Origin: Synergistaceae bacterium
GTDB lineage: Bacteria > Synergistota > Synergistia > Synergistales > Aminobacteriaceae
DNA length: 45,271 nucleotides
Assembly (NCBI GenBank): GCA_031267575.1
Contig: JAIRYN010000034.1
Span: forward strand, 1-45,271
Reading direction: 5' to 3'
Under the pieces are notes generated by a model that was not told where the DNA came from, did not search any database, and saw nothing but the letters and a program-made list of their open reading frames with translations. Made by a program: the position numbers and the translations under genes. This document shows, one piece after another, positions 775 to 39,817 of this stretch (positions within the stretch are counted from its first letter, which is position 1; every line of letters begins with the position of its first letter).

Positions 775-1233
775 GCGATTCTCATCCAACGGCTGAAGCC
801 ATTGGCTTTCTCATCGCTTTATCGTAATTTTAACAAAAAATTTCATCTTTTATCTATACACATATCTATACACAAAATGCCCGGAAAGAAACGCGCCTTT
901 TCCAGACTTCGCTCACTTTTTATCCGAAGGTGATCTTAGCATAAATCATGCTAATCTTAGCATAAATCTTCGAAATTTTGGGATTCTGCTCATCGTTCTT
1001 GCGTATCAGTAAGCGATCAACGACGACCATCGCCCGTGCGAGGTGTATAATCCGTAAATCATGACTGAGAATGAATACTGACTGAGAATGAATATTGAGA
1101 ATGAATATATAGAAGAGCTTCATATTTTGTTTGCTCGGACTACTCTGTGCCTGGTCCGCTTGATTGGGCGGCCATGACTAACAAGCAATGATAAATCGTT
1201 GAATTGACTATCAACTTTTCATAGGAGGAAATC

Positions 1234-1929
1234 ATGGCACAAAAGAGAGAAAACATTCTTATTCTTGCTAAAACATACCCTACCCCCAGCGCAAAAAACG
1301 TAGAAACAACATGTATTGCTGGGATCAACGAGGATGGAGAAATGCGTAGGCTTTTCCCTGTCCCTTTCAGGTTACTGACGAAAGAGTCTCAATTTCACAA
1401 ATGGCAATGGATTAATGTGGCAATTGAAAAGAGTTCAACAGACAAAAGAATAGAAAGCTACAAAATCTCTTTTGAAGATATAAGGCCGGGAGTTATCCTC
1501 AATACCAAACAAGATTGGGAAAAACGTATCGCGTGGATAAATCGCGTTCCTGTCGTTACAAAATTTTTACCCGATCGTTCTTCTCCACATCTACAAAAAG
1601 ACCAGTCTCTTGTGTTGTATAAACTCCAAGAGCCAGTAAGACTCGAAATTGTCTCGTCATCTACGGAATGGACCACGGAAGAACTTCGTAAATTAAAGCA
1701 AGACGGAAGTTTGTTTTCACGTGAAGAAGCGCTTTTGCCTCCCGCGCTGGAAAAAATCCCCTTTGATTTTTATTATCGTTTCAAAGCAAACACTGCTGAC
1801 GGAACAGGACATGAGATCAGAATCAAGATTACCGATTGGGAAGCAGGCGCCCTTTATCGCAATTGCTTCCGGTTTTATAGAGAACAATGGCAAAGTCAAT
1901 TTCAACAAAGATTAGAGAGAGATGAATAA
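1234..1929 (+). CDS. Hypothetical protein of 231 aa with no recognisable motif, inside a low-GC islet
   Basis: Long ORF with a strong RBS (GGAGGAAATC before ATG). Local GC is far below the window average. Confidence 0.6.
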   Translation: MAQKRENILILAKTYPTPSAKNVETTCIAGINEDGEMRRLFPVPFRLLTKESQFHKWQWINVAIEKSSTDKRIESYKISFEDIRPGVILNTKQDWEKRIAWINRVPVVTKFLPDRSSPHLQKDQSLVLYKLQEPVRLEIVSSSTEWTTEELRKLKQDGSLFSREEALLPPALEKIPFDFYYRFKANTADGTGHEIRIKITDWEAGALYRNCFRFYREQWQSQFQQRLERDE

Positions 1930-2006
1930 CAAAAATCTTATGTTGTTACTTGGCAACATGCACCACTTTCAGGACCAATGGCTTATTATAAGCCTTCTCT
2001 ATCCCC

Positions 2007-2495
2007 CTAAGCAAAGCACGGCTCTGGCGCAGCAAATATCGTTACCATTTGACGAGAATTAACAGGATGTAGATTTTGGATAACTGTCTTATATTGCACA
2101 TCTATCCGCTGTGCGATAAGGAGGCGATGACATTTATTAGGATCGGCCTCAAAGCACATGAAAGCCGACGTAAATTTTTCAGAATAGCGCACAAGAGTTT
2201 CTAATGTTTCGAGATTACCTTCTAAATGCTCCTTAAATCTAAAACAATATTGCTGCCAATTACCGTTTTGGCAATATTCTTTTCTGATATCCGCGGGGCA
2301 CCCTAGTTTCTGGAAATGCTTATATTGTATTCCGAGAGCGCAAAGTCTCTCAGAGAGGAGATTTTTTGAAAACCCAGGCTTCCTCGATAAAGGTTTTTCT
2401 CTTACATCCGCCAAAAAATTGATTTTATTTTCTCGTAAGCAAGAAAGAAAAATTTCTAAACTTGTTCCTTCATAACCAATTGTATAAACTTTCAT
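2007..2495 (-). CDS. DUF488 family protein (YeaO-like)
   Basis: N-terminus MKVYTIGYEG...FLADVREKPLSRKPGFSKNLLSERLCALGIQYKHFQKLG matches the DUF488 signature. Start chosen at the Met preceded by GGAG; the ORF track extends it to 2516. Lies in the low-GC islet. Confidence 0.7.
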   Translation of the reverse strand: MKVYTIGYEGTSLEIFLSCLRENKINFLADVREKPLSRKPGFSKNLLSERLCALGIQYKHFQKLGCPADIRKEYCQNGNWQQYCFRFKEHLEGNLETLETLVRYSEKFTSAFMCFEADPNKCHRLLIAQRIDVQYKTVIQNLHPVNSRQMVTIFAAPEPCFA

Positions 2496-2971
2496 ACAAT
2501 TCACTCTCCAGTGCATATGAGTTAAATATAATATATATCATATCGTATCGTATAAAAAGCAGTATAACAAAATTTACTGACCAATTTAATTTTACTTATA
2601 ATAAGGAAACATTCCAGTTTTAATTTTGTCTCCCACTCGTGCTGTTTTTAAAATTTTTGCCCTGAGTGACTAATATAAATTCATTAAGATAAAGTGATAC
2701 ATTAAACAATATTCCTGAAATGCCACTTAGGATTTTTTAACCTGTACCATTTTATTTTTATTTATAGATTCTTTTCGTGTCGGGACAATGGGAAGAGGAT
2801 CGTTTAGCGACCTCAGGTCAACGCGGCACGAGAACGTTGCCACGGCCCAATTGTTTCAGTCACCATCTGGCATTAGATTTGTAACCGCTTTCGTCTTTTT
2901 TCATCATCGTTCTGGGGATCGCCATAAGCGCGATTTTCTCCACACTGTGCTGGAACGTCAAAAGTTATAGA

Positions 2972-3457
2972 TCACCGCGTCACCTCCCGCCATTCGTTTC
3001 GCGAGATTAGATCCGTTACGCGATGGGCGGCCCTTTCCACGGCTTCGGAGAGAGAGGCGCCCAGCCGCAAGGTCGAAGGTTGGATACCCAGGACGACGAT
3101 CTCGATGGAATCCATGAATGGCCCCAGCAAAACCGACAGAGGAATACCGTGACTTGAGTCCATGACGGCGTTCAGCTCGCCGACGGAAAACCTGCGAAAC
3201 TCGCCGGGAGCGAGTCCCATATTCGCGGCGTCCACAATCAGCAGGGTGCGAGGGGAAATCTTGCGCAGCGTCGCCACGTAGTTTTCCGGCATCGTCCCAC
3301 ATACAACGACCCCTGGCATTCCCCGCTCCAATAGAAGTTCCGCCACCTTGCACCCCACCGCGTCGTCTCCCAAAAGCACGTTGCCCACACCCCAAACCCA
3401 CGGCTTCTCCTCGCTTGACTTCTCCGCCAACTCCTTCATCAACTCCTCCAAACTCAT
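2972..3457 (-). CDS. Hydrogenase maturation endopeptidase (HycI/HyaD family)
   Basis: WVWGVGNVLLGDDAVGCKV...VCGTMPENYV...LLIVDAANMG matches the GNxLxxDDG / DGG / IVDA pattern of hydrogenase maturation proteases. Confidence 0.75.
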   Translation of the reverse strand: MSLEELMKELAEKSSEEKPWVWGVGNVLLGDDAVGCKVAELLLERGMPGVVVCGTMPENYVATLRKISPRTLLIVDAANMGLAPGEFRRFSVGELNAVMDSSHGIPLSVLLGPFMDSIEIVVLGIQPSTLRLGASLSEAVERAAHRVTDLISRNEWREVTR

Positions 3458-5417: not shown

Positions 5418-7502
5418 CTATACAAACAGAGGTGCCATTACCAGAGCGACAACCGTCATGAGCTTGATAAGAATGTTCAGGCTGGGGCCCGCCGTGTCCT
5501 TGAAGGGGTCTCCCACCGTGTCGCCAACCACTGCCGCCGCGTGGTTGGGTGTGCCTTTGCCGCCGCAATTTCCCTCTTCGATGTATTTTTTCGCGTTATC
5601 CCAGGCTCCGCCTGCGTTGGCCATGAAAAGCGCCAACATGACTCCTGTGACAATCGCGCCTCCCAGAAAACCTCCCAGCGCCGCTTTGCCCAGGATCAAT
5701 CCAATAGCCAGCGGGGAAACCAAAGCCAGAATGCCGGGAATAATCATTTCTTTTAGGGCCGCGGCTGTGGAAATAGAGACACATTTTTCGTATTCGGGCT
5801 TGGCTGTTCCCTCCATGATGCCCGCGATGTCGCGGAATTGACGGCGCACCTCCGCGATCATAGACTGAGCGGCGCGACCCACGGCTTCGATACAAAAGGC
5901 GCAGAGCAAGAAGGGCAGCATTCCACCCAGCAACATTCCCACGATGACCTTGGGGTCCATCAGGTCAATGTGCGATAACTGGGCGGCTTGACTGTAGGCT
6001 ACAAACAACGCCAAAGCCGTCAAGGCGGCTGAGCCAATAGCCAAACCTTTCCCCATGGCGGCGGTCGTATTGCCGATGGAGTCCAGTTTGTCCGTGATTT
6101 TCCGTACATCAGGTGGAAGTTGGCTCATCTGAGCGATGCCTCCCGCGTTGTCGGCAATCGGACCATAGGCATCCACGGAAAGAGCGATGCCCGTGATAGA
6201 CAGCATTCCCACCGCCGCGCAGGCTACACCGAAAACTCCCGCTAGCCAGTGGCTGATCAAGATGGAAAGGACGATTAAAATTACGGGGCACACCAAAGAT
6301 TTCATGCCCAAGGAAAAGCCCGCCAAAATAACGGTGGCCGGACCGGTTTCGGAGGCGTTAGCTACGTCTTTGACGGGGGAGTAATCGCTTGACGTGTAGA
6401 GTTCCGTGGTGTAGCCGATCAAGACGCCCGCCAGAACTCCTGACGTCACGGCCAGGAAAATATGGAAGGTCTTGGTGAAGAAGCACAACAAACTCAAAAC
6501 GAAGGTGCCCAAAATCATGATTCCGCCGGCGGCGAAGATCCCCACCCTCAAGGCGAAAGCAGCGTCTCCTTCATGGATACGGTCCAAGATCTTTTTGACG
6601 CAACCGATCTTTCCGATATAGTGAAACGTCAAATCGACCCATTTTTCCAAGTAGCGGACCTTGGAGCTGATCAACAGGCAGCCGATGATGGAGGAGAAGA
6701 TACCCCAACCCGCCAGGAGCATGGGAAAAGCTACACCCCGAATTCCCAAGGCCACGCCTCCGTATAGGTCTGTGCTGATGAGTCCGATAGTCATGGCCGC
6801 GATGACGGAATTAACGTAGGACTCGAACAGATCCGCGCTCATGCCCGCCACGTCCCCAACGTTGTCCCCAACGTTGTCCGCGATGACCGCTGGGTTGCGG
6901 GGGTCGTCTTCCGGGATGCCCGCCTCGACCTTGCCCACGAGATCCGCGCCCACGTCTGCCGCCTTGGTGTAAATACCGCCCCCAACCCGGGCGAAAAGAG
7001 CGATGCTACTGGCTCCCATGCCGAACGCCGCTAAGGAACTCACGCTCAGGAAAAGATACGCTACCGCGATGCCGGCCAGACCTACGCCCACCACCAGCAT
7101 TCCCACGACACTGCCTCCGGAAAAGGCCATTTCCAGGGCTTCGCCCGGACTACGGGTAGCCGCAAAGGTCGTGCGTCCATTGGTCTGAGTCGCGACGTAC
7201 ATCCCTAGCCAACCTGTGGCCGCACTGCAAAGGGCTCCCAATAAAAAGGCAAAAGCAGGGCCGGCTCCGAAACCCACTTTCCACATCCCCAACAAAAGCA
7301 CGGTAACGCCGCCGACAAAACACGCCAGCCAAGTGTACTCTTTTTTCAAAAAGGCCATAGCCCCTTTGTGGATGATTTGAGAGAGTTCCATTATTCGTGG
7401 GTCATCCACCACAAAGTTCGTTATCTTTTGATGGACCAACCACGCGTAAAGAATCGCCACCACGCCCAGGGCAAAAGTTAACAATACCAATAAAATCGTC
7501 AC
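5418..7502 (-). CDS. hppA: Membrane-bound proton- or sodium-translocating pyrophosphatase
   Basis: 694-aa polytopic membrane protein carrying the [14 protein letters not shown] and DNAGGIAQM motifs typical of H+-PPases. Confidence 0.9.
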
Positions 7503-10595: not shown

Positions 10596-10617
10596 ACCTG
10601 GTCGCCTTTCGGCATTG

Positions 10618-10684
10618 TCTTCATTAATATTACCTTTATTAATATTGCCTTCATTAATATTACCTTCATTAAAAAATTGCCTTC
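10618..10684. repeat. Tandem repeat of about 16 bp with roughly 3.5 copies (ttcattaatattRcct) between moxR and the DUF58 gene
   Basis: Direct reading: cattaatattaccttt attaatattgccttc attaatattaccttc attaaaaaattgcc. Confidence 0.8.
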
Positions 10685-11627
10685 ATACGATGGTTGGTAC
10701 TTCCGAAAAAATCGCGCTCAGCACCTCGCGCTTAGTAGATCCCGATCCCTGGCGTAACTGTAAACGGTGGAGCAACACATCCTCCGCCATCACCTTTACG
10801 TCCTCAGGGATCACATAGTCTCGGTTCTGCATCCAAGCCAGAGTTTTGGCCAATTGCAGGAGCGACATGGCGCCCCGCGTGGAAATTCCGGCCGCAATAT
10901 TGGGAAAGACGCGGGTTTTTTCGGTTAGGGTCAGCATGTAGTCCAAAATCTTGTCGGAAACCATGACGCTGCGCTCAATGTCCGAGTGGATCCTCAGAAT
11001 TTCGTCAGGAGAAAACAAGGCCGAGATGTTTGAAAGTTTTTCTTTCTGGCTACCGGCTTTCAGTATTTCACGCTCGGCGGTTCTGGAGGGATAGCCAATG
11101 GAAACCTTCATCATGAAGCGGTCCATCTGGGACTCCGGAAGGGGAAAGGTTCCAGAGTGCTCCACGGGGTTTTGGGTGGCGACAATGAAAAAAGGCCGAG
11201 GTAACCGGTAGGTTTTTCCGTCGATTGTAACCTGCTCCTCCCCCATAGCCTCCAACAGGGCGCTCTGAGTTTTGGGTGTCGCGCGGTTGATTTCGTCCAC
11301 CAGTACCAAATTATTGAAAATGGGGCCGGGATGAAACTCAAATTCGCCCTTTTCCGCCTTGAAGATATTGAGTCCCGTGACATCCGTAGGTAAAAGGTCG
11401 TTCGTGCATTGGACACGACCGAAACGCAACCCTAGAGTTCGAGCCATGGCGATGGCCAAAGTTGTTTTGCCTAAACCGGGCAAGTCCTCCAATAAGAGGT
11501 GTCCATTTGAAAAAAAGCAGGCCATCATTTTTACTAAAACCCCGTCCTTGCCGTGCAACAAAGGCGAAAGATGCGCAAGCGCCTCCTTGATGCGAGGGTT
11601 GACCGCGAAAAAAGGAACATTAGACAT
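10683..11627 (-). CDS. MoxR-like AAA+ ATPase
   Basis: Walker A motif LLEDLPGLGKTTLA, a Walker B region, and a C-terminal MoxR lid. Sits in the classic MoxR-DUF58-transglutaminase gene order. Confidence 0.9.
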   Translation of the reverse strand: MSNVPFFAVNPRIKEALAHLSPLLHGKDGVLVKMMACFFSNGHLLLEDLPGLGKTTLAIAMARTLGLRFGRVQCTNDLLPTDVTGLNIFKAEKGEFEFHPGPIFNNLVLVDEINRATPKTQSALLEAMGEEQVTIDGKTYRLPRPFFIVATQNPVEHSGTFPLPESQMDRFMMKVSIGYPSRTAEREILKAGSQKEKLSNISALFSPDEILRIHSDIERSVMVSDKILDYMLTLTEKTRVFPNIAAGISTRGAMSLLQLAKTLAWMQNRDYVIPEDVKVMAEDVLLHRLQLRQGSGSTKREVLSAIFSEVPTIV

Positions 11628-19937: not shown

Positions 19938-22402
19938 ATTCGCTCAGCTCCTTCAGCTCGTTTTTTTCTCGCCAGTTTTTTGATGTACATGGCTTCATCC
20001 GCCAGATTGATGGTTTCCAACAGACTGCACGCGGTTCCGGGATAGATCGCGAGACCGAAATCCATGACTATCTCAATCAGAGGCGCATCCGGGTTGGAGT
20101 CGTCGCTATAGACCTTCTGCTGTTTCAACTCCACCTCGATCCTGTTGAGCACCACTTCCGCGTCTTGAAGCGTCACGTTCGACAACAAAATGATAAACTC
20201 GTCGCCTCCATAGCGTCCTACGCTGTCGCTGAGGCGCAGACTTTTTTTAATGGCCGAGACCGTCTTCACCAGGACCTCGTCCCCTTTGATGTGCCCGTAA
20301 TTGTCGTTGATCTGTTTAAAGCTCCCCATGTCTCCGATGACTAGACAAGCGTTGCCGCCATAACGGGCGATGCGGTCGCTTTCCTCCTGAAGGCGGCGGA
20401 TCATATAGCGACGGTTCCATATTCCCGTCAGTGGGTCGATGAAAGCCTCTTCCTCGCGTGTGGCCATAAGGTCGTAGAGCATCCAGAAACTCGAAACGTA
20501 ATCGGTCAGTAACTGGTACATTTTGAGTTCCCTGGGCAGTATCCCTGACGGCTTGTGGAGATCCAGAGCTCCGATGCTACGCGCTTGAAAGACGAGAGGG
20601 GAAACATACCGCGTCTCCACGCCCTTTTCGTTGTAAACCATCTGCGAGGCTTTGTCGCGAATCGCCTCCATCACCAGGTCGCTGTTGGGAATGTGGATGT
20701 GTTCTTTTTCGTAATAAGCCAAGCGCTTCAATTTCTGAGAGTCCTTGCCGTTTTCGTCGAAAAGATAGATGGCACAGGCGGAATCCTTGACCATGTTTTC
20801 CAAGTACTTCAGAACCTCGTCCAGAAGATGTTTCCGATTTTGCGTCTGAAGCATAGAGTAAATGAGGCCATGGAGGCGCTGAAGCTGTTGAGCGTCGGTA
20901 TCCAACTCCGTGCGGTCGAACTGTTCCTCGAAATAGATTCCGATATTGCCTCCTAGAATGCTCATCAAGGTCACGTCTTGGTGCGTAAAGGCGTTTGAAG
21001 ATTCGTTTTCCAGGCCCATGACACCCCATGTCTTTCCTTTGTAAGCCAACGGAACGGCCAACACGGAACGAGCTTCGCCGAAATGTCGCTCCTCCCTGGC
21101 AAGTGGCGTCCGATCAACATAAGCTCGACCCAAGGGTCCTTCTCCCGCCAGGATCTTGGTCAGTTCCGCGTCGACCCTGTCCGCGTCAAGGGGTTCGTCG
21201 CAGAGGAACCAAGTTTTCTCTAAAAAAGACGGCACAATCAGCTTCAAGTGGGAAAAGGAGATCACCTTGGGCAAGTTTTCCCTCAGCGCTTCGAAGAGCT
21301 GTTCCACTCCCTCGAACTGATTGAATTGCTGTAGAAAGTCGAACAGCCAGTGTTGGTTCTCCGAAAGAAGTTTGAACTCGGCGGCGCGCTTTTTCTGCAA
21401 GGTAATATCGATGCCCGAAAAAACATAATTTAAGATGTTGCCATCAAAATCAATGAGAGGCGAAATCCCATATTTCAAAGTAACGCGCCGCCCGTCGCGG
21501 TGGGTAAAATCCTCCTCTAGGTGAGAAAATCGGTCGCCGTCGCTCTCGCATTCCGCCAAAAATTCTTCCATGGCGACCTTGCCCACTACTTCGCGATGGC
21601 CGTCCGAGAGGGATAACACGGGAACCTCATGAAGCTCTTTAGAGCTATAGCCAAGCATATCGTAAAAAGCCTGGTTCGCGTCTAGCAGTCTCCCTTTGTT
21701 GTCGGTGATGGCCATACCCTCCGGAGCGCTTCGGAAAATCATCTCGAGACGGCGTTCTGAGCTCTGCAGAGCCTCCATGGTTCGTTTATAGTCGTCGATG
21801 TCCAGCATCGCCCCAATGAGCCTGACGATTTTACCCCGAAAGCGTACAGCAACGTGACTCCGTGCGACAAACCACCTCCATTCGCCCTGAACGCTCTGCA
21901 TTCGGAGCTCCACATTGAATGTTTCATTCAATGTTTCATTCAAATTGAAGGTTTCGTCCAAATCCAAAGTGCCGTCGGAACGTAAGTGATTCGTGACCTT
22001 TTTGAAAAAATCCACGTCGTCAGGGTGAATTAAGGAGACGAAATCCTCATAGGTCTCCGCATCACGGCCAAAGATGAAACGTCCCTCAGGAAGTAGGCGA
22101 AAACGCCGATTTACGAGGTCCCATATCCAAGAGCAGCCTCCTGTGGTTTTCGTCATGATTGTCAGAAGAGCTTCCCAATGCCGTGCTTTTTCTCGCTCTT
22201 TGACGAACAAAACAAACTGGATCAGGGCCGCCGCGCCGAATATGAAAAACAGGGAAAGGGTCGCCGCGTCCAGTCGCAAAAACCACCACGCTACCCCAGC
22301 GACAAAAATCCACAGCGCCGCGTACAACCCTATTTGCAACACGCTGTTTCTTGTCACCTGGCGCCTGTCCACCGAAATCAAAGCGTTTTCTTCGTTCGTC
22401 AC
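19934..22402 (-). CDS. Membrane-anchored PAS/GAF sensor diguanylate cyclase (GGDEF)
   Basis: Two N-terminal TM helices and PAS-like segments. The C-terminus reads DPLTGIWNRRYM...GDMGSFKQINDNYGHIKGDEVL...RYGGDEFIILL, a GGDEF domain with an intact GGDEF motif. Confidence 0.85.
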   Translation of the reverse strand: MTNEENALISVDRRQVTRNSVLQIGLYAALWIFVAGVAWWFLRLDAATLSLFFIFGAAALIQFVLFVKEREKARHWEALLTIMTKTTGGCSWIWDLVNRRFRLLPEGRFIFGRDAETYEDFVSLIHPDDVDFFKKVTNHLRSDGTLDLDETFNLNETLNETFNVELRMQSVQGEWRWFVARSHVAVRFRGKIVRLIGAMLDIDDYKRTMEALQSSERRLEMIFRSAPEGMAITDNKGRLLDANQAFYDMLGYSSKELHEVPVLSLSDGHREVVGKVAMEEFLAECESDGDRFSHLEEDFTHRDGRRVTLKYGISPLIDFDGNILNYVFSGIDITLQKKRAAEFKLLSENQHWLFDFLQQFNQFEGVEQLFEALRENLPKVISFSHLKLIVPSFLEKTWFLCDEPLDADRVDAELTKILAGEGPLGRAYVDRTPLAREERHFGEARSVLAVPLAYKGKTWGVMGLENESSNAFTHQDVTLMSILGGNIGIYFEEQFDRTELDTDAQQLQRLHGLIYSMLQTQNRKHLLDEVLKYLENMVKDSACAIYLFDENGKDSQKLKRLAYYEKEHIHIPNSDLVMEAIRDKASQMVYNEKGVETRYVSPLVFQARSIGALDLHKPSGILPRELKMYQLLTDYVSSFWMLYDLMATREEEAFIDPLTGIWNRRYMIRRLQEESDRIARYGGNACLVIGDMGSFKQINDNYGHIKGDEVLVKTVSAIKKSLRLSDSVGRYGGDEFIILLSNVTLQDAEVVLNRIEVELKQQKVYSDDSNPDAPLIEIVMDFGLAIYPGTACSLLETINLADEAMYIKKLARKKRAEGAERM

Positions 22403-27260: not shown

Positions 27261-27487
27261 GATTTACGAGCGAAAGCATAAAAAGATTACTGAAAGGTCG
27301 CTAGTGGATAAGTGGATAAGTGGATAAGTGGATAGTGTGGACGACCTTCAAATTCCAAAAAACCAAGAGGCGAAAACCCTTTCTCGTCTTGGACGATAAG
27401 GATTTTATTTTCCGCGTAATCGCGACGTTATAGAGACATATGATCGCGCGTCTCTACAAAGCGTGACGCTCGTGTTAAAATTTCAAA

Positions 27488-27949
27488 ATGCTTGTTAAAA
27501 ATAAGACGATCACTTTTGTTTTGGCATTGACAGCAGATATCGCCACAAAATATTGGGCCTTGTCCGTTCTTGCCGTGGCGAGTGAGAAAATGACGTTTTC
27601 TACTCTGCTTTCTTTGAGGTTGCGTTTCAATCAAGGGATTTCTTTTTCTTTGCTGGTTCGGCATCCCCGGGGCGCGTGGCTGGTGGCTGTTGTCAGTGTC
27701 GTTTTTTTGGGAATGTTGTGCGTGAAAAATGCGACGGTCCGTTCCTCCTCTGGTATGTCCTTTGGTATGTTCTTTGGTATGTCCTTGTTGTGGGCTGGGG
27801 GTTTAGGGAATTTGGCCGATCGTGTCTTTTATGGATATGTTGTGGATTAGATTTACATGGGCATATTCGTGAACTTGGCCGATTTTTGGCTATGCTTGGG
27901 TTCTGTTTTATTGTTAAAGCATTGTTGGAATAGACGCCTCGACTCTTGA
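27488..27949 (+). pseudogene. lspA: Lipoprotein signal peptidase II interrupted by an in-frame TAG at 27848-27850
   Basis: ADIATKY (catalytic Asp region) and GNLADRVFYGYVVD, then TAG, then IYMGIFVNLADFWLCLGSVLLL containing the second catalytic FNxAD motif. The two halves are collinear and in the same frame. Confidence 0.75.
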
Positions 27950-27999: not shown

Positions 28000-29202
28000 A
28001 TGAGGGTTGCCGTAGGGTGGATTCTTTTTTCATGGTTGTTGACGGCGAGCGTCGCTGATTCGGCTTCGTCTGAGACGGCGCCGTCCATGGTGAAGCCTTT
28101 GGCGACGACGAACGCACCAGTGGTTTCCATTGAATTACCGGCGTCCTTGGCGTCCTCTTGGGAGAGACTTTCCTCGACCCTAACGGACGCCTTGAACCTC
28201 CAGGACAAACAGGAGACCTTGCCGGAATCCTCCTACTTCGGCGCGGACAAAATCAGCAACACGAAAAAAATCAACGCGCTTTTGGACAAGGTCGTCGAGA
28301 TTTTGGTTCAGGGCGACGCTAGCGATCTGCGTAGGCAGGCGATTGCGTTACGTGAGACAGGGCTGCCCGCTTTGCGCCGAGAAGTGGATGACCTCCGTAA
28401 CAAGCGTATTTCCGCTCCAGAGACCTCCAAAGTGCCCTGGGTCAAAACGCGCTCCCAAATAGAAGCGCGCATCGCGGAGCTGGATGTGGAGATCAAAGAG
28501 AAAGAGCGGCTTGCGATGGATATCGACAGCAAGATCGCCGAAGCGTTGAGAAACATGGGCCTCGATTTGGACGACAAACAAATCGACATCCTGCTGACCT
28601 CCGTCACTGGTGACGATCTTTTTCAAAACACGGTGGTCTTCGCGAATGTCAAACACGTGGTGGAAAAGCTCGCGGAGCTTTCTCGGGAAGACCGGGACAA
28701 CTTGGAGATCAGCCGGCGTTATATCGGTATGTACCTGGTGTTGAACGACGTTTTGATTGCCACTCAAGAGGGACTGATCGAGAAAATCAATATGGACTAC
28801 AAACCACGATTGGCCGAGTTGAAGGCCGAGGCCGAAAAACTTCGCGCGGAAGCCTTAGGACGCGCAAAACAAGGACAGTACTCGAAGACCCAAAAAGAGG
28901 CATTTGAGGTCAACGCCAAGGCCAACGCCATGACGGCGCGAGTGGCAGAGCTTTACGCGGAGCTCCTAGAAGGACAACGCAAAAATTTCAAGGTGACCTT
29001 GATGGACCTGCAACGCAACCGCGACGTGGCGGAGAGTACCTACAAGACTGTCCGGAGTACGGGCGACCTGAGAAACCTAATCCGCGCGGGGCTCGATTTG
29101 TTTGACTCCATCCATCCTCTTTCCATGCCTCAGCTTCAATCTTTTGAAAACGAGGCCATCCGCAAGGAGTTCGAAGAAATCAACAAACGTCTGAGAAAAT
29201 GA
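28000..29202 (+). CDS. Secreted coiled-coil protein of 400 aa, function unknown (possibly TelA-like)
   Basis: Signal peptide MRVAVGWILFSWLLTASVADSA, then long heptad-rich Glu/Lys/Ala/Leu segments. The TelA resemblance is weak. Confidence 0.55.
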   Translation: MRVAVGWILFSWLLTASVADSASSETAPSMVKPLATTNAPVVSIELPASLASSWERLSSTLTDALNLQDKQETLPESSYFGADKISNTKKINALLDKVVEILVQGDASDLRRQAIALRETGLPALRREVDDLRNKRISAPETSKVPWVKTRSQIEARIAELDVEIKEKERLAMDIDSKIAEALRNMGLDLDDKQIDILLTSVTGDDLFQNTVVFANVKHVVEKLAELSREDRDNLEISRRYIGMYLVLNDVLIATQEGLIEKINMDYKPRLAELKAEAEKLRAEALGRAKQGQYSKTQKEAFEVNAKANAMTARVAELYAELLEGQRKNFKVTLMDLQRNRDVAESTYKTVRSTGDLRNLIRAGLDLFDSIHPLSMPQLQSFENEAIRKEFEEINKRLRK

Positions 29203-29229
29203 AAATACGCTATCTTTCGTTAAGAGATC

Positions 29230-29263
29230 TGTAATTATTATTAGAGGTCGCTGTATTATACAG
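29230..29263 (+). terminator. Hairpin terminator candidate after the coiled-coil gene
   Basis: Near-perfect palindrome ttagaggtcgctgta-tta-tacagcgacctctaa with an AT-rich flank and no clean T-run. Confidence 0.4.
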
Positions 29264-29675
29264 CGACCTCTAATGCCGGTGGACAGCCGGCTCACAACAC
29301 AGGGAGGTGTTGCGAAATTATATTAACACGCATTTTATATAAGGTATACTATAATAAATCTTAGGATATGACGTAAAAATTGCTTAAAAATATTATAATG
29401 AAGCTATAATTAAAATAAAATAAATAAGAATGATATTTGAAACAGTATTAAAACTTACTTTGTTTTACATCTATCCGTGTCGCTATGTCGGTTGTTTGTT
29501 TTTGAGTAAATATTTTATCGTTTTGAAGCGAAAGATATCCCTGACGCTGACGGCGGATCCCTTCTATATGTTTTATGCGCATGCTTTATGCGCATGCTTT
29601 ATGCGCGATGTGTAAATGAAGTTAGTGGTCGCCTTGTTTTTGTCCCTGGTATTCCCTCTCTGAAGTTTTTATTTT

Positions 29676-29989
29676 TACGATAAAGCGATCCTCATCCAAC
29701 AGCTGAAGCCGTTGGATGAGGATCGCAACACCACCGTTGGCGGTGTTTGTTTTGTATTTGGTTTCTTGCCATATGTCTACTTTCATGTTAAACTCCTTTT
29801 ATGGCTTATCAACGTGAGATGCGGGGCGGAACACGACCAGGATATTAATGCGGTTGTAAATATTCTAAGAGTGGGAGCATCCACTCTTAGTGGGGGCATC
29901 CACTCTTAAAGGAAAAGACGTAAGACCGGTTTCAGTCGGCTGTTTTTGTCGATCTTATAATCCCATGACTTTAGTCGTGGGAGTATGTC
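29676..29989 (+). repeat. Copy B of the promoter-leader repeat cassette, oriented toward cobQ
   Basis: Inverted relative to copy A at about 90% identity. Contains a 19-bp internal tandem duplication (29869-29906) and the conserved hairpin cccatgac-ttta-gtcgtggg at 29962-29981. Confidence 0.85.
29766..29794 (+). promoter_or_regulatory. Sigma70-like promoter within copy B, likely driving cobQ
   Basis: TTGCCA, 17-nt spacer, TAAACT. It is preceded by a hairpin plus T-run (29727-29768) that overlaps the -35 element. Confidence 0.5.
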
Positions 29990-30022
29990 AAGTAAGGAGT
30001 TTGTGCGTAAGGAGTTTGTGCG

Positions 30023-31639
30023 ATGAAGGGTATCATGATTCAAGGAACCAGCAGCGACGCGGGTAAAAGTTTTTTGGTGACGGGGTTGTGTCGCGTTTTC
30101 TCGGACAGAGGTTACAGGGTTTGCCCTTTCAAATCTCAAAATATGTCGAATAACTCTTACGTGACAAAAGACGGTCTGGAGATGGGCAGAGCCCAGGCCG
30201 TGCAGGCCGAGGCGGCGCGCCTCGACCCCCAGGTTTTTATGAATCCCATTCTTTTAAAACCCCGCAACGATGCCACCTCCGCAATTGTCTTGATGGGGCA
30301 AGAATGTACAGACGCACGCGCTGATTACTACCGAGCCTTCACGATGAACGAAGGGCTCTCGACGGTTCGGGCGGCGCTGGCTCACATCGAGAAAAATTTT
30401 GAAGCGGTGCTGATCGAGGGAGCAGGCAGCCCGGTCGAGATTAACTTGAATGCTACGGAGATCGTCAATATGCGCGTGGCTCGCGAGGCGGACGTGCCCG
30501 TTATCTTGACGGCGGACGTGGACAGAGGCGGGGCCCTAGCCGCTTTGGTGGGAACCCTCGATCTTCTGGAGGCAGACCGCGATCGCGTCAAGGGCATCAT
30601 CTTCAACAAATTCAGGGGAAACCTGTCGCTTTTCGAGCCCGCGGTCCGCTGGACGGAGGAACGTACCGGAGTCAAAGTTCTGGGCGTGATGCCTTGGACT
30701 CCGGCGCGCATTGCCAGTGAGGACTCTTTGTCGATTCGCTGGAACGCGCGCTCGCCGAAGGGTTTTCTCGATAATGAGATAGATAATGGGATAAATAACA
30801 GGATAAATAACAGGATAGATAACAGGATAGATAACAGGATAGGAAGCGAAGGTTTGGTAATTGGCGTCATTCGCCTGCCCTATATCTCGAACCACACGGA
30901 TCTGGAGGCATTCGAGGCGGAACCCGATGTGGAGTTGATCGAGGTAGACACGCATACATCCCTCCGTCGAGTTGACGCGGTGATCCTTCCGGGGACCAAG
31001 AGTACGGTGCTGGACATGAAAGTACTGCGTGACTCAGGACTTGCCGGACGGCTCCTGGATTTTCACCAAAGAGGCGGGTATCTTTTCGGCCTATGCGGCG
31101 GATACCAAATGTTGGGGCAATACATCGACGACCGCTATTTGCGGGACAACGACACACTGAAGGAAATCGAGGGGTTGGGCCTGCTTCCCGTCGTTACGAC
31201 TTTTGGGGAGAAGAAAACCACCCGTCGCCGCGAAGGATGGACGATTCACCCCCTGTTCACCTCGAACGCTGCCAGGGTTGAAGGGTATGAAATCCACTTT
31301 GGGGAAACGCGCTCAGTGGGGGAGGGCAGAGGAGACGGTCTTTCGGAAAAGGAGCGTTTTTATCCCCTATTCGTCTTAAACGGCTACGAAGACGGCATGG
31401 CTGACCGAGAACTCCGCGTGGCGGGAACATACCTACATAATGCCTTTCACAACGATATTTTCAGGGCTTTCTGGTTAAATGCTCTGCGAAAAAGCAAGGG
31501 TTTGCCTGAGCGTTCTGTCACTGACACCACCGCGGCGAACGAAGAGGCATACGACGTTTTGGCGGCGCGGATGCGAGAGCACATCGACATAGATTATATT
31601 TTCACGTTGTCCGGCCTCCTCGATAGAAAGGAGCAATGA
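30023..31639 (+). CDS. cobQ: Cobyric acid synthase
   Basis: MKGIMIQGTSSDAGKSFLVTGLCR is the CobQ/CbiP N-terminal ATPase signature, followed by a C-terminal GATase-1 domain (LFGLCGGYQMLG). The linker carries an in-frame repeat insertion coding DNEIDNGINNRINNRIDNRIDNRIG. Confidence 0.9.
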   Translation: MKGIMIQGTSSDAGKSFLVTGLCRVFSDRGYRVCPFKSQNMSNNSYVTKDGLEMGRAQAVQAEAARLDPQVFMNPILLKPRNDATSAIVLMGQECTDARADYYRAFTMNEGLSTVRAALAHIEKNFEAVLIEGAGSPVEINLNATEIVNMRVAREADVPVILTADVDRGGALAALVGTLDLLEADRDRVKGIIFNKFRGNLSLFEPAVRWTEERTGVKVLGVMPWTPARIASEDSLSIRWNARSPKGFLDNEIDNGINNRINNRIDNRIDNRIGSEGLVIGVIRLPYISNHTDLEAFEAEPDVELIEVDTHTSLRRVDAVILPGTKSTVLDMKVLRDSGLAGRLLDFHQRGGYLFGLCGGYQMLGQYIDDRYLRDNDTLKEIEGLGLLPVVTTFGEKKTTRRREGWTIHPLFTSNAARVEGYEIHFGETRSVGEGRGDGLSEKERFYPLFVLNGYEDGMADRELRVAGTYLHNAFHNDIFRAFWLNALRKSKGLPERSVTDTTAANEEAYDVLAARMREHIDIDYIFTLSGLLDRKEQ

Positions 31640-31827
31640 GATGAAAGTTTTTAAGGACGCGGAGAAGTTTGACGGCTACCTACTACCCTCTACCCACTAC
31701 CCACTACCCTCTACCCACTACCTTCCACTCTCCACAGCTCTTATGTCTATACAGCTCTTATGTCCATCATTACCGCTAAAGTCGTCGGACTTCACGGCCA
31801 CGAAAGAAGCGCGGAGCTGAAAGAAGG

Positions 31828-37892: not shown

Positions 37893-39817
37893 GCCCCTTC
37901 ACCCTCTAGAAAATGCACAATTCTCTCCGCCTCTTCTTCCGCGTTGCCGCTCCCGTTCACGACGAGTTCGGGATGTTCCGGGCGTTCGTATGGCGCGTTG
38001 ATGCCGGTAAAATTGGGAATCTCCCCGATTCTCGCTTTTTTGTAAAGACCTTTCGGGTCGCGCTGTTCGCAGGCTTCCAGCGACGTATCGACGAACACCT
38101 CGATAAATTCTCCGGGAGCGAACAGGGAGCGCGCGTATTCCCTGTCTTTTTGGAAAGGTGAGATAAACGCCACCAACACGATAAGGCCAGCGTCAATCAT
38201 CAATTTCGCCACTTCGGCCACGCGGCGGATGTTCTCCACCCTGTCTTCCTCGGTGAAGCCCAGGTCTTTGTTGAGCCCGTGCCTCACATTGTCGCCGTCC
38301 AGCACACAAGAACGCAATCCCATCGAAAAGAGCTTTTTGTCAACCAGATTCGCCACCGTCGATTTGCCGGAACCTGAAAGCCCCGTGAACCAAAGCACGC
38401 GAGGGGTTTGCCCCATCAGACGTGCTCTAGCCTCTTTCGTGATCTCGAACAAGTGCCATGTCACGTTTGCGGCCCTCCGCAAGGAATATCGAATCATTCC
38501 CGCGCCAACCGTGTCATTCGTGACGCGATCAATAAGGATGAAACCACCTAATTCCCTGTTTTCCGTGTAAGGTTCGTACACAATCGGTGTTCCGGTTTTG
38601 ATGTTGCCTATTCCGATTTCGTTCATAGCGAGGGTTTTGGCCGGTTCTATCGACAATGTTTCGACGCTTGTCTTGCCGCGTATTTCCGTCACGGTGGCCA
38701 ACACCGTCCGGTTCGATATCTTCAAAAGGTATTCGCGTCCGGGGAACAACCTGTTTTCGCTCATCCAGACTACGACCGCGCGGAAATGGTCCGTAACATC
38801 TGAAACAACCCGCGCGTCCGATAAAAAGTTGCCGCGGCTTATGTCCGTTTCTTTCGTAAGAGATATCTCCGCAGCTTCACCCTTTTTAGCCGCGTTTCGT
38901 TCTTTGCCGCTCACGATAAGCGACTTAACCGTATTTTTTTGACCCGACGGCAGAACGACAACATCGTCGCCCGTGCGTATCGTGCCCTCCGCGATTATGC
39001 CGCAGTAACCCCTAAAGCTCGCGCCGGGCCGGTTGACCCACTGAACCGCCATCCTAAATGGTTTTACCTTTTCTTTTAGCTTTTCTTTTAGCTTTTCTTT
39101 TTCGCCGCCCGGTTCGAGGGTTTCCAAATACTCCGCCAGCGTCGGACCACTGTACCACGGCGTATCGTCCTTACGCGCGAAAACGTTGTTCCCTTTTAGG
39201 GCAGAAAGCGGAATACAGGTCACGAAGAGTTCTCCCGTGTCGTGTTCCAGTTTTTTAATTTTTACCATTAAGCTCTCGTAGTCCTTCGATATTTCGTCGA
39301 AAATATCCCTCGACCATCCGACCAAATCCATCTTGTTCACCGCGAGCGCGATGTGGCGAATACCTAACAATACCGCGATGTACGTGTGCCTCACGGTCTG
39401 CGGCAAGATGCCGTTGCGCGCGTCAAGTAGAACAACGGCGGCCTCGCTGTTTGAAGCGCCGGTCACCATGTTTCTCGTGTACTGTTCGTGTCCCGGCACG
39501 TCTGCCACGATGAACTTCCTGTTTTTCGTTTCGAAATACCTATACGCCACGTCTATGTCTATGGTTATCCCCTGCTCACGTTCCGCCAAAAAGCCCTCCA
39601 TAAGAAGCGAGAAATCCAGTTCGCCGTCCATGTTTTTCTTCCAGCTTTCGCGGTGGAGGGAAGAGAGTTGATCATCAAAGAGACAGCCCGAATCATAAAG
39701 CAGCCTTCCTATCAGCGTGCTCTTTCCATCATCGACGCTACCGCAGGTTAAAAATTTCAGTTGCGTTTTATTTTCATGTGTTTTCTTTTTAGATTCGGAA
39801 AATGGCATTTTTAAAAA
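37889..39817 (-). CDS. cysNC: Bifunctional sulfate adenylyltransferase subunit 1 / adenylylsulfate kinase
   Basis: GTPase domain [16 protein letters not shown]...DVPGHEQY...NKMD, with a C-terminal APS kinase ([14 protein letters not shown]...). Start at MPFSESKKK (39817); the ORF track extends to 40054 through the cysD remnant. Contains an in-frame [10 protein letters not shown] repeat. Confidence 0.85.

Follow-up and report, generated by a model that had tools for sequence, protein, structure and literature searches.

The window analyzed here is the whole 45,271-bp contig of a MAG of an uncultured Synergistaceae bacterium. On its plus strand, an ORF of 120 amino acids (27488-27850) terminates at a TAG codon (27848-27850), past which the same frame stays open for another 32 codons (IYMGIFVNLADFWLCLGSVLLLKHCWNRRLDS) until a TGA at 27947-27949. 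The stop-masked translation of 153 residues matched the Pfam Peptidase_A8 family (PF01252, cut-off 25 bits) with 80 bits, covering positions 2-139 of the 142 in the profile, and the first 120 residues alone matched it with 64.9 bits over positions 2-108. Because the tail raises the score by about 15 bits and supplies the C-terminal third that the match otherwise lacks, the codons behind the stop represent genuine LspA sequence rather than a frame left open by chance. Furthermore, a profile built from the clade aligns across the stop with the PDB LspA chains 6ryo, 9emz and 5dir. By these matches the gene at 27488-27949 is lspA, a member of the Peptidase A8 family. The initial annotation had proposed an lspA gene with an in-frame amber codon at 27848-27850, 32 in-frame codons downstream of it and the second catalytic Asp motif located 3' of the stop, and each of these points is borne out by the profile match, the frame and the alignment, respectively. 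As a consequence of the TAG, the window lspA lacks one uninterrupted ORF with all four transmembrane helices. The features of the locus are as follows, with L049, L050 and L051 denoting the three nearest orthologues.

27453-27481, plus strand: promoter-like site of putative function, consisting of TCTACA, a 17-nt spacer and a TG-extended −10 element TAAAAT (consensus scan)
27488-27850, plus strand: 5' part of lspA with helices 1-3, the first catalytic Asp (D120, GAT at 27845-27847) and the premature TAG (Pfam, alignment to 6ryo and the residue list of PMC6952399)
27599-27607, plus strand: 9-bp in-frame insertion (S-T-L, 3 aa) missing from the three nearest orthologues and of ambiguous exact position (codon alignment)
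27746-27786, plus strand: 12-bp tandem repeat of 3.4 copies with 89% matches (TRF)
27848-27850, plus strand: premature amber TAG, from TGG (Trp) via G>A at 27849 (codon alignment with L049, L050 and L051)
27851-27949, plus strand: 3' remnant of lspA, 32 codons and TGA, containing helix 4 with N129, A131 and the second catalytic Asp (D132, GAT at 27881-27883) (alignments)
27857-27859, plus strand: ATG (Met124) two codons past the stop, GTC or GTG (Val) in the orthologues; a conceivable restart without Shine-Dalgarno sequence (codon alignment)

The 120-aa product corresponds to database entry MDR1378366.1, 'MAG: signal peptidase II [Synergistaceae bacterium]', and was found on one contig only among ~15 billion proteins. 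Its nearest relatives are P0002 and P0003 from JGI metagenomes and P0004 from GCA_031276755.1, with 61-65% identity over local alignments, followed by relatives of 38-50% identity from 20 Synergistaceae/Synergistales genomes. The isolate and sample names of the clade members indicate that they are mostly termite-gut MAGs. The window and the contigs of the intact orthologues L049-L051 have in common the gene order of an AsmA-like gene (minus strand), lspA, a gene for a 400-aa protein and the CobQ gene, indicating that the window lspA is the positional orthologue of the intact genes rather than a stray additional copy. We also observed that lspA evolves faster than its neighbours, with 62-66% protein identity to the orthologues compared with 78-85%. 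The 400-aa protein adjoining lspA downstream (28000-29202 in the window; 616-1848 in L049) is a conserved, secreted, coiled-coil-like protein matching no Pfam family, and its identity to the orthologue is 85% outside a variable, repeat-like N-terminal segment rich in Pro, Ala and Ser.

The window lspA scored 60.7 bits against TIGR00077, the NCBIfam equivalog, and thus fell under the cut-off of 73.95. However, this cut-off was equally missed by P0002-P0005 and P0007, which are intact members of the clade (51.7-67.9 bits), indicating that failure against TIGR00077 is a trait of this divergent 'VVDW' clade rather than of the mutation. Despite their sub-cut-off scores, the tested members of the clade retain both dyad residues and almost every conserved residue. 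One MAG bin of the clade, Roe453_bin29, contains two lspA genes (L004 on JAITRO010000120.1 and L012 on JAITRO010000056.1) with 48% identity to each other and unrelated flanking genes; either second lspA copies occur in the clade as paralogues, or the bin is mixed.

Fourteen highly conserved residues have been described for S. aureus LspA (D21, K25, N52, G54, G102, N106, D109, R110, V116, D118, F132, N133, A135 and D136), with Asp118 and Asp136 forming a catalytic dyad supported by mutagenesis (Olatunji et al., PMC6952399). Alignment to 6ryo places their window equivalents, in the same order, at D17, K21, N48, G50, G104, N108, D111, R112, V118, D120, V128, N129, A131 and D132. The frame before and after the stop thereby retains 13 of these 14 residues, including both Asp residues of the dyad, with D120 corresponding to Asp118 and D132 to Asp136. 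The one departure, Val128 at the position of Phe132, lies at a site where the nearest orthologues, like most other clade members, have V, A or I. The motif after the stop reads VNLAD and not FNLAD as initially annotated. By alignment, the window gene has the same four-helix layout as the LspA structures 6RYO/6RYP (S. aureus) and 5DIR (P. aeruginosa), from which it differs in having a TAG that breaks the frame between the codons of the catalytic Asp pair, in the clade's 'VVDW' in place of 'VVDF' and in two lineage-specific in-frame insertions. Because the stop directly follows D120, helix 4 is removed together with N129, A131 and D132. Judging from the mechanism of the family, a 120-aa product lacking both helix 4 and the other catalytic Asp cannot work as an aspartyl protease.

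To identify what the stop replaced, we turned to the codon alignment, in which the codon aligned with the TAG is TGG in all three nearest orthologues. Trp occupies this site in 45 of 45 clade relatives (23 genome-derived and 22 metagenome-derived), a count that is partly biased in that one of the search patterns demanded W, and no relative among the 45 has a stop at the aligned site or an internal stop anywhere else. Since the orthologues read TGG, the change is TGG>TAG, one G>A transition at position 27849. The initial annotation had expected a Tyr or Phe codon here and a TAT to TAG change, and both proposals give way to Trp in this lineage: the TGG in three orthologues rules out a TAT, or TTC, ancestor, and Phe appears at this site only in distant LspAs. 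A second G>A change unique to the window, at 27857, replaces Val by Met and yields an ATG 6 nt past the stop; the closest orthologue has GTG at this position.

The 12-bp repeat that had been noticed within lspA was confirmed by TRF. Two extra repeat units account for 8 additional in-frame residues, GMSFGMFF (89-96), where helix 3 begins, an insertion that no homologue examined has. The 3-aa insertion at 27599-27607 is likewise unique to the window, and both insertions keep the frame. Such repeats are frequent throughout the contig, which has 24 tandem-repeat arrays (5.3 per 10 kb), compared with ~0.7 arrays for random sequence of the same composition and 1.6-2.6 arrays per 10 kb in larger sets of comparison loci. 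The intragenic arrays have periods divisible by 3, mostly 12, and the CobQ gene has an array of 5.4 copies of 12 bp, with 20 extra residues in the window compared with orthologue L049. Given that in-frame arrays recur contig-wide, also in intact-looking genes, the lspA repeat reflects a habit of the contig and is ruled out as a sign of decay. Examples of the arrays are found at 30778-30842, 39062-39101, 6852-6879, 21913-21943, 10614-10686 and 31676-31722, and the lspA of L069, another homologue, bears an FGLFGLFGL insertion.

The lspA ATG at 27488 is preceded by no Shine-Dalgarno sequence (−1.9 kcal/mol, compared with −7 to −13 kcal/mol for most genes), and the −10 element of the promoter-like site ends 6 nt before it. 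A TGnTAnAAT motif lies at the same distance in the orthologue spacers of L050 and L051 (TGTTAAAAT in the window, TGTTAGAAT and TGCTAAAAT in the orthologues). The lack of a Shine-Dalgarno sequence combined with the position of the −10 element suggests that lspA has a conserved leaderless mRNA. Further upstream, the spacer between the divergent AsmA-like gene and lspA (27261-27487) carries four copies of AGTGGATA at 27303-27334, which amount to three DnaA boxes (TTATCCACT, minus strand) that overlap and have one mismatch each. In the orthologues, the corresponding spacers (1849-2100 in L050; 534-751 in L051) retain several GTGGATAA-type motifs, including one perfect TGTGGATAA. This DnaA-box-like repeat could point to DnaA-dependent regulation or to a link with a replication origin. 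Both GC skew and gene orientation switch near 27.3 kb; however, the skew tracks the gene strand and flips back with it near 37 kb, so that a replication origin near 27.3 kb is not convincing.

Two other regions of the contig stood out in composition. Upstream of cobQ lies an 820-bp gene-free spacer (29203-30022; GC 0.33-0.43) with three tandem repeats of periods 13, 19 and 15. Despite the nearby B12-pathway genes, no Rfam family, the cobalamin riboswitch included, matched this spacer. A low-GC block at 1000-3000 (0.38-0.41 compared with 0.52 for the contig), which is preceded by several tandem repeats at 851-1114, harbors a 231-aa ORF without Pfam match and a DUF488 gene and may represent acquired DNA.

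The dN/dS ratio (Nei-Gojobori) of the window lspA against the orthologues is 0.14-0.31, similar to the 0.19-0.24 obtained for pairs of intact orthologues; these values apply to the gene as a whole, the 32 downstream codons being too few to be tested alone. They indicate purifying selection over essentially all of the divergence, and the stop is thus either very recent or not real. Together with the intact conserved residues, the normal dN/dS rules out an old decaying pseudogene. None of the other 33 ORFs of the window is disrupted, leaving lspA as the sole visibly broken gene. Twenty-eight of these ORFs match Pfam, with the long ones matching in full length (MurJ, 2-429 of 451; H+-PPase, 1-645 of 645; CobD, 1-279 of 282), and given the 33 undisrupted ORFs we reject a generally poor sequence quality as unlikely.

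On this evidence, we consider it probable, if modestly so, that lspA carries a real and very recent G>A null mutation and represents a young null allele or incipient pseudogene. Recent nonsense mutation had been one of the options of the initial annotation, and it is the one best supported by the normal dN/dS, the 13 of 14 residues kept and the clean contig. The lesion itself is of an ordinary kind, a one-base nonsense change in an orthologous lspA. It resembles other young nonsense pseudogenes and null alleles of bacterial genomes and MAGs in the single transition to a stop, the kept gene-order position and the unchanged selection signatures, and differs from them in that the gene hit is one that the model diderms E. 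coli and P. aeruginosa require for viability. Under the proposed sequence of events, a G>A transition at 27849 in a normally placed lspA would turn the invariant Trp codon into an amber codon, and translation, as the gene is written, would end at the first catalytic Asp after 120 residues, with no protease activity. The loss would probably be tolerated either because cleavage of lipoprotein signal peptides is less critical in a terrabacterial diderm devoid of Lol, or because another copy resides elsewhere in the genome. Both the reality of the base in the organism and the reason for a tolerated loss are points that we infer.

The likeliest competing possibility is that the TAG is an artefact of sequencing, assembly or consensus calling, or a minority variant picked by the assembler, and that the true gene reads TGG and is intact. 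A single substitution is the only frame-breaking lesion in a gene with conserved catalytic residues and normal dN/dS, and it hits a Trp that is invariant in 45 relatives. Moreover, nothing replicates the TAG: the sequence is carried by one contig only, and protein search, cluster look-up, a scan of genome contigs, two scans of metagenome contigs and exact-product look-ups of the 120-aa protein and its neighbour retrieved no second contig of the same species. The other G>A change unique to the window, only 8 nt away, could also indicate local base damage or error. By contrast, 33 other ORFs in 45 kb without stop or frameshift indicate a low per-base error rate, and we judge, as an estimate rather than a measurement, a random stop-creating error in a 45-kb contig to be much rarer than real pseudogenes, which make up a few percent. 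The sequencing error raised by the initial annotation is therefore accommodated equally well by the lack of further decay and disfavored by the cleanliness of the rest of the contig, and we regard an artefact as rather unlikely, though with an appreciable chance.

Alternatively, a real TAG might still allow some active enzyme to be made, either by UAG readthrough via a near-cognate or suppressor tRNA or by re-initiation at the ATG at 27857, resulting in a two-piece LspA. This could account for the undamaged state of the 32 downstream codons. Among the aligned LspAs, the stop position tolerates F as well as W, and E. coli LspA presumably has M there. As for re-initiation, the Val to Met change unique to the window has set an ATG right behind the stop, and the lspA mRNA is apparently leaderless; leaderless mRNAs are handled by 70S ribosomes, which are able to re-initiate nearby. 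The enzyme may perhaps also be needed in small amounts only. However, the ATG at 27857 is without a Shine-Dalgarno sequence, its −3.1 kcal/mol being equal to the median over all window ATGs, where most real starts reach −7 to −13 kcal/mol, and GTG is already present in the closest orthologue, so that the ATG may be a coincidence. Folding of the 121-nt stretch that begins with the stop is no better than that of shuffled sequences (z = +0.45), and neither a tRNA gene nor an Rfam family was found in the window. A split or a stop at this site is seen in no related genome, indicating that the arrangement is not conserved. Programmed UAG recoding, such as that involving pyrrolysine or readthrough signals, is similar in having an in-frame UAG followed by conserved coding sequence; it differs from the present case, in which the stop is kept in none of the 45 relatives and the window holds neither a stimulatory structure nor recoding machinery. 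Programmed or suppressor readthrough, which the initial annotation had listed, is not upheld, because TAG acts as a normal terminator here and comes with neither RNA structure nor tRNA gene in the window. Residual activity by any of these routes thus appears improbable to us. A functional split enzyme, in which the 120-aa fragment (helices 1-3 with Asp120) and a 30-aa helix-4 peptide (with Asp132) reassemble in the membrane as a two-chain aspartyl signal peptidase, is a more specific proposal to which we assign very little probability.

The reading of TAG as a sense codon, via pyrrolysine or a reassigned code, has nothing but the in-frame TAG itself in its favor and is hardly credible, because TAG replaces an invariant Trp, no pyl genes occur among the other 33 ORFs of the window, and TAG closes real genes at their natural ends. 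The H+-PPase ORF, whose profile match is full-length, closes with a TAG 5 residues beyond that match, and the AsmA-like gene has TAG as its stop as well. These cases indicate that TAG serves as an ordinary terminator in the window, for which a reassignment is effectively refuted, and we reject a genome-wide one. Furthermore, dropping TAG from the set of stops merges real genes no more than dropping TAA does.

Returning to a real and recent null mutation, the loss of LspA has to be reconciled with the role of this enzyme in diderm bacteria. lspA is essential in E. coli and P. aeruginosa and dispensable in monoderms such as S. aureus (PMC6952399). Synergistetes are listed in Terrabacteria, a group that practically lacks Lol and whose Bam and Lpt machineries come without outer-membrane lipoprotein parts (bioRxiv 10.1101/2021.05.31.446380). 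Given these absences, the known causes of lspA lethality need not apply. The statement of the initial annotation that signal peptidase II is normally essential in diderms is thus documented for E. coli and P. aeruginosa and weak for Synergistetes. A scan of 33 window ORFs found no convincing lipobox protein. The viable lspA nulls of monoderm Firmicutes (S. aureus) offer a comparison: there, the loss of LspA is non-lethal and the Lol pathway is absent, as it is in Terrabacteria. Unlike those monoderms, Synergistaceae bear an outer membrane, and we know of no member of the family in which dispensability of lspA has been tested. If the allele is a true null without a second copy, it would amount to an lspA knockout that arose in nature in a bacterium with an outer membrane.

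For users of the database, entry MDR1378366.1 'signal peptidase II' describes a product without half of its active site and should be treated as a disrupted gene. If the stop is real and the MAG has no second lspA, the locus would serve as a naturally occurring sign that a terrabacterial diderm lacking Lol can do without LspA. Dispensability of this kind, if true, would fit the view of lipoprotein-independent outer-membrane biogenesis in those lineages.
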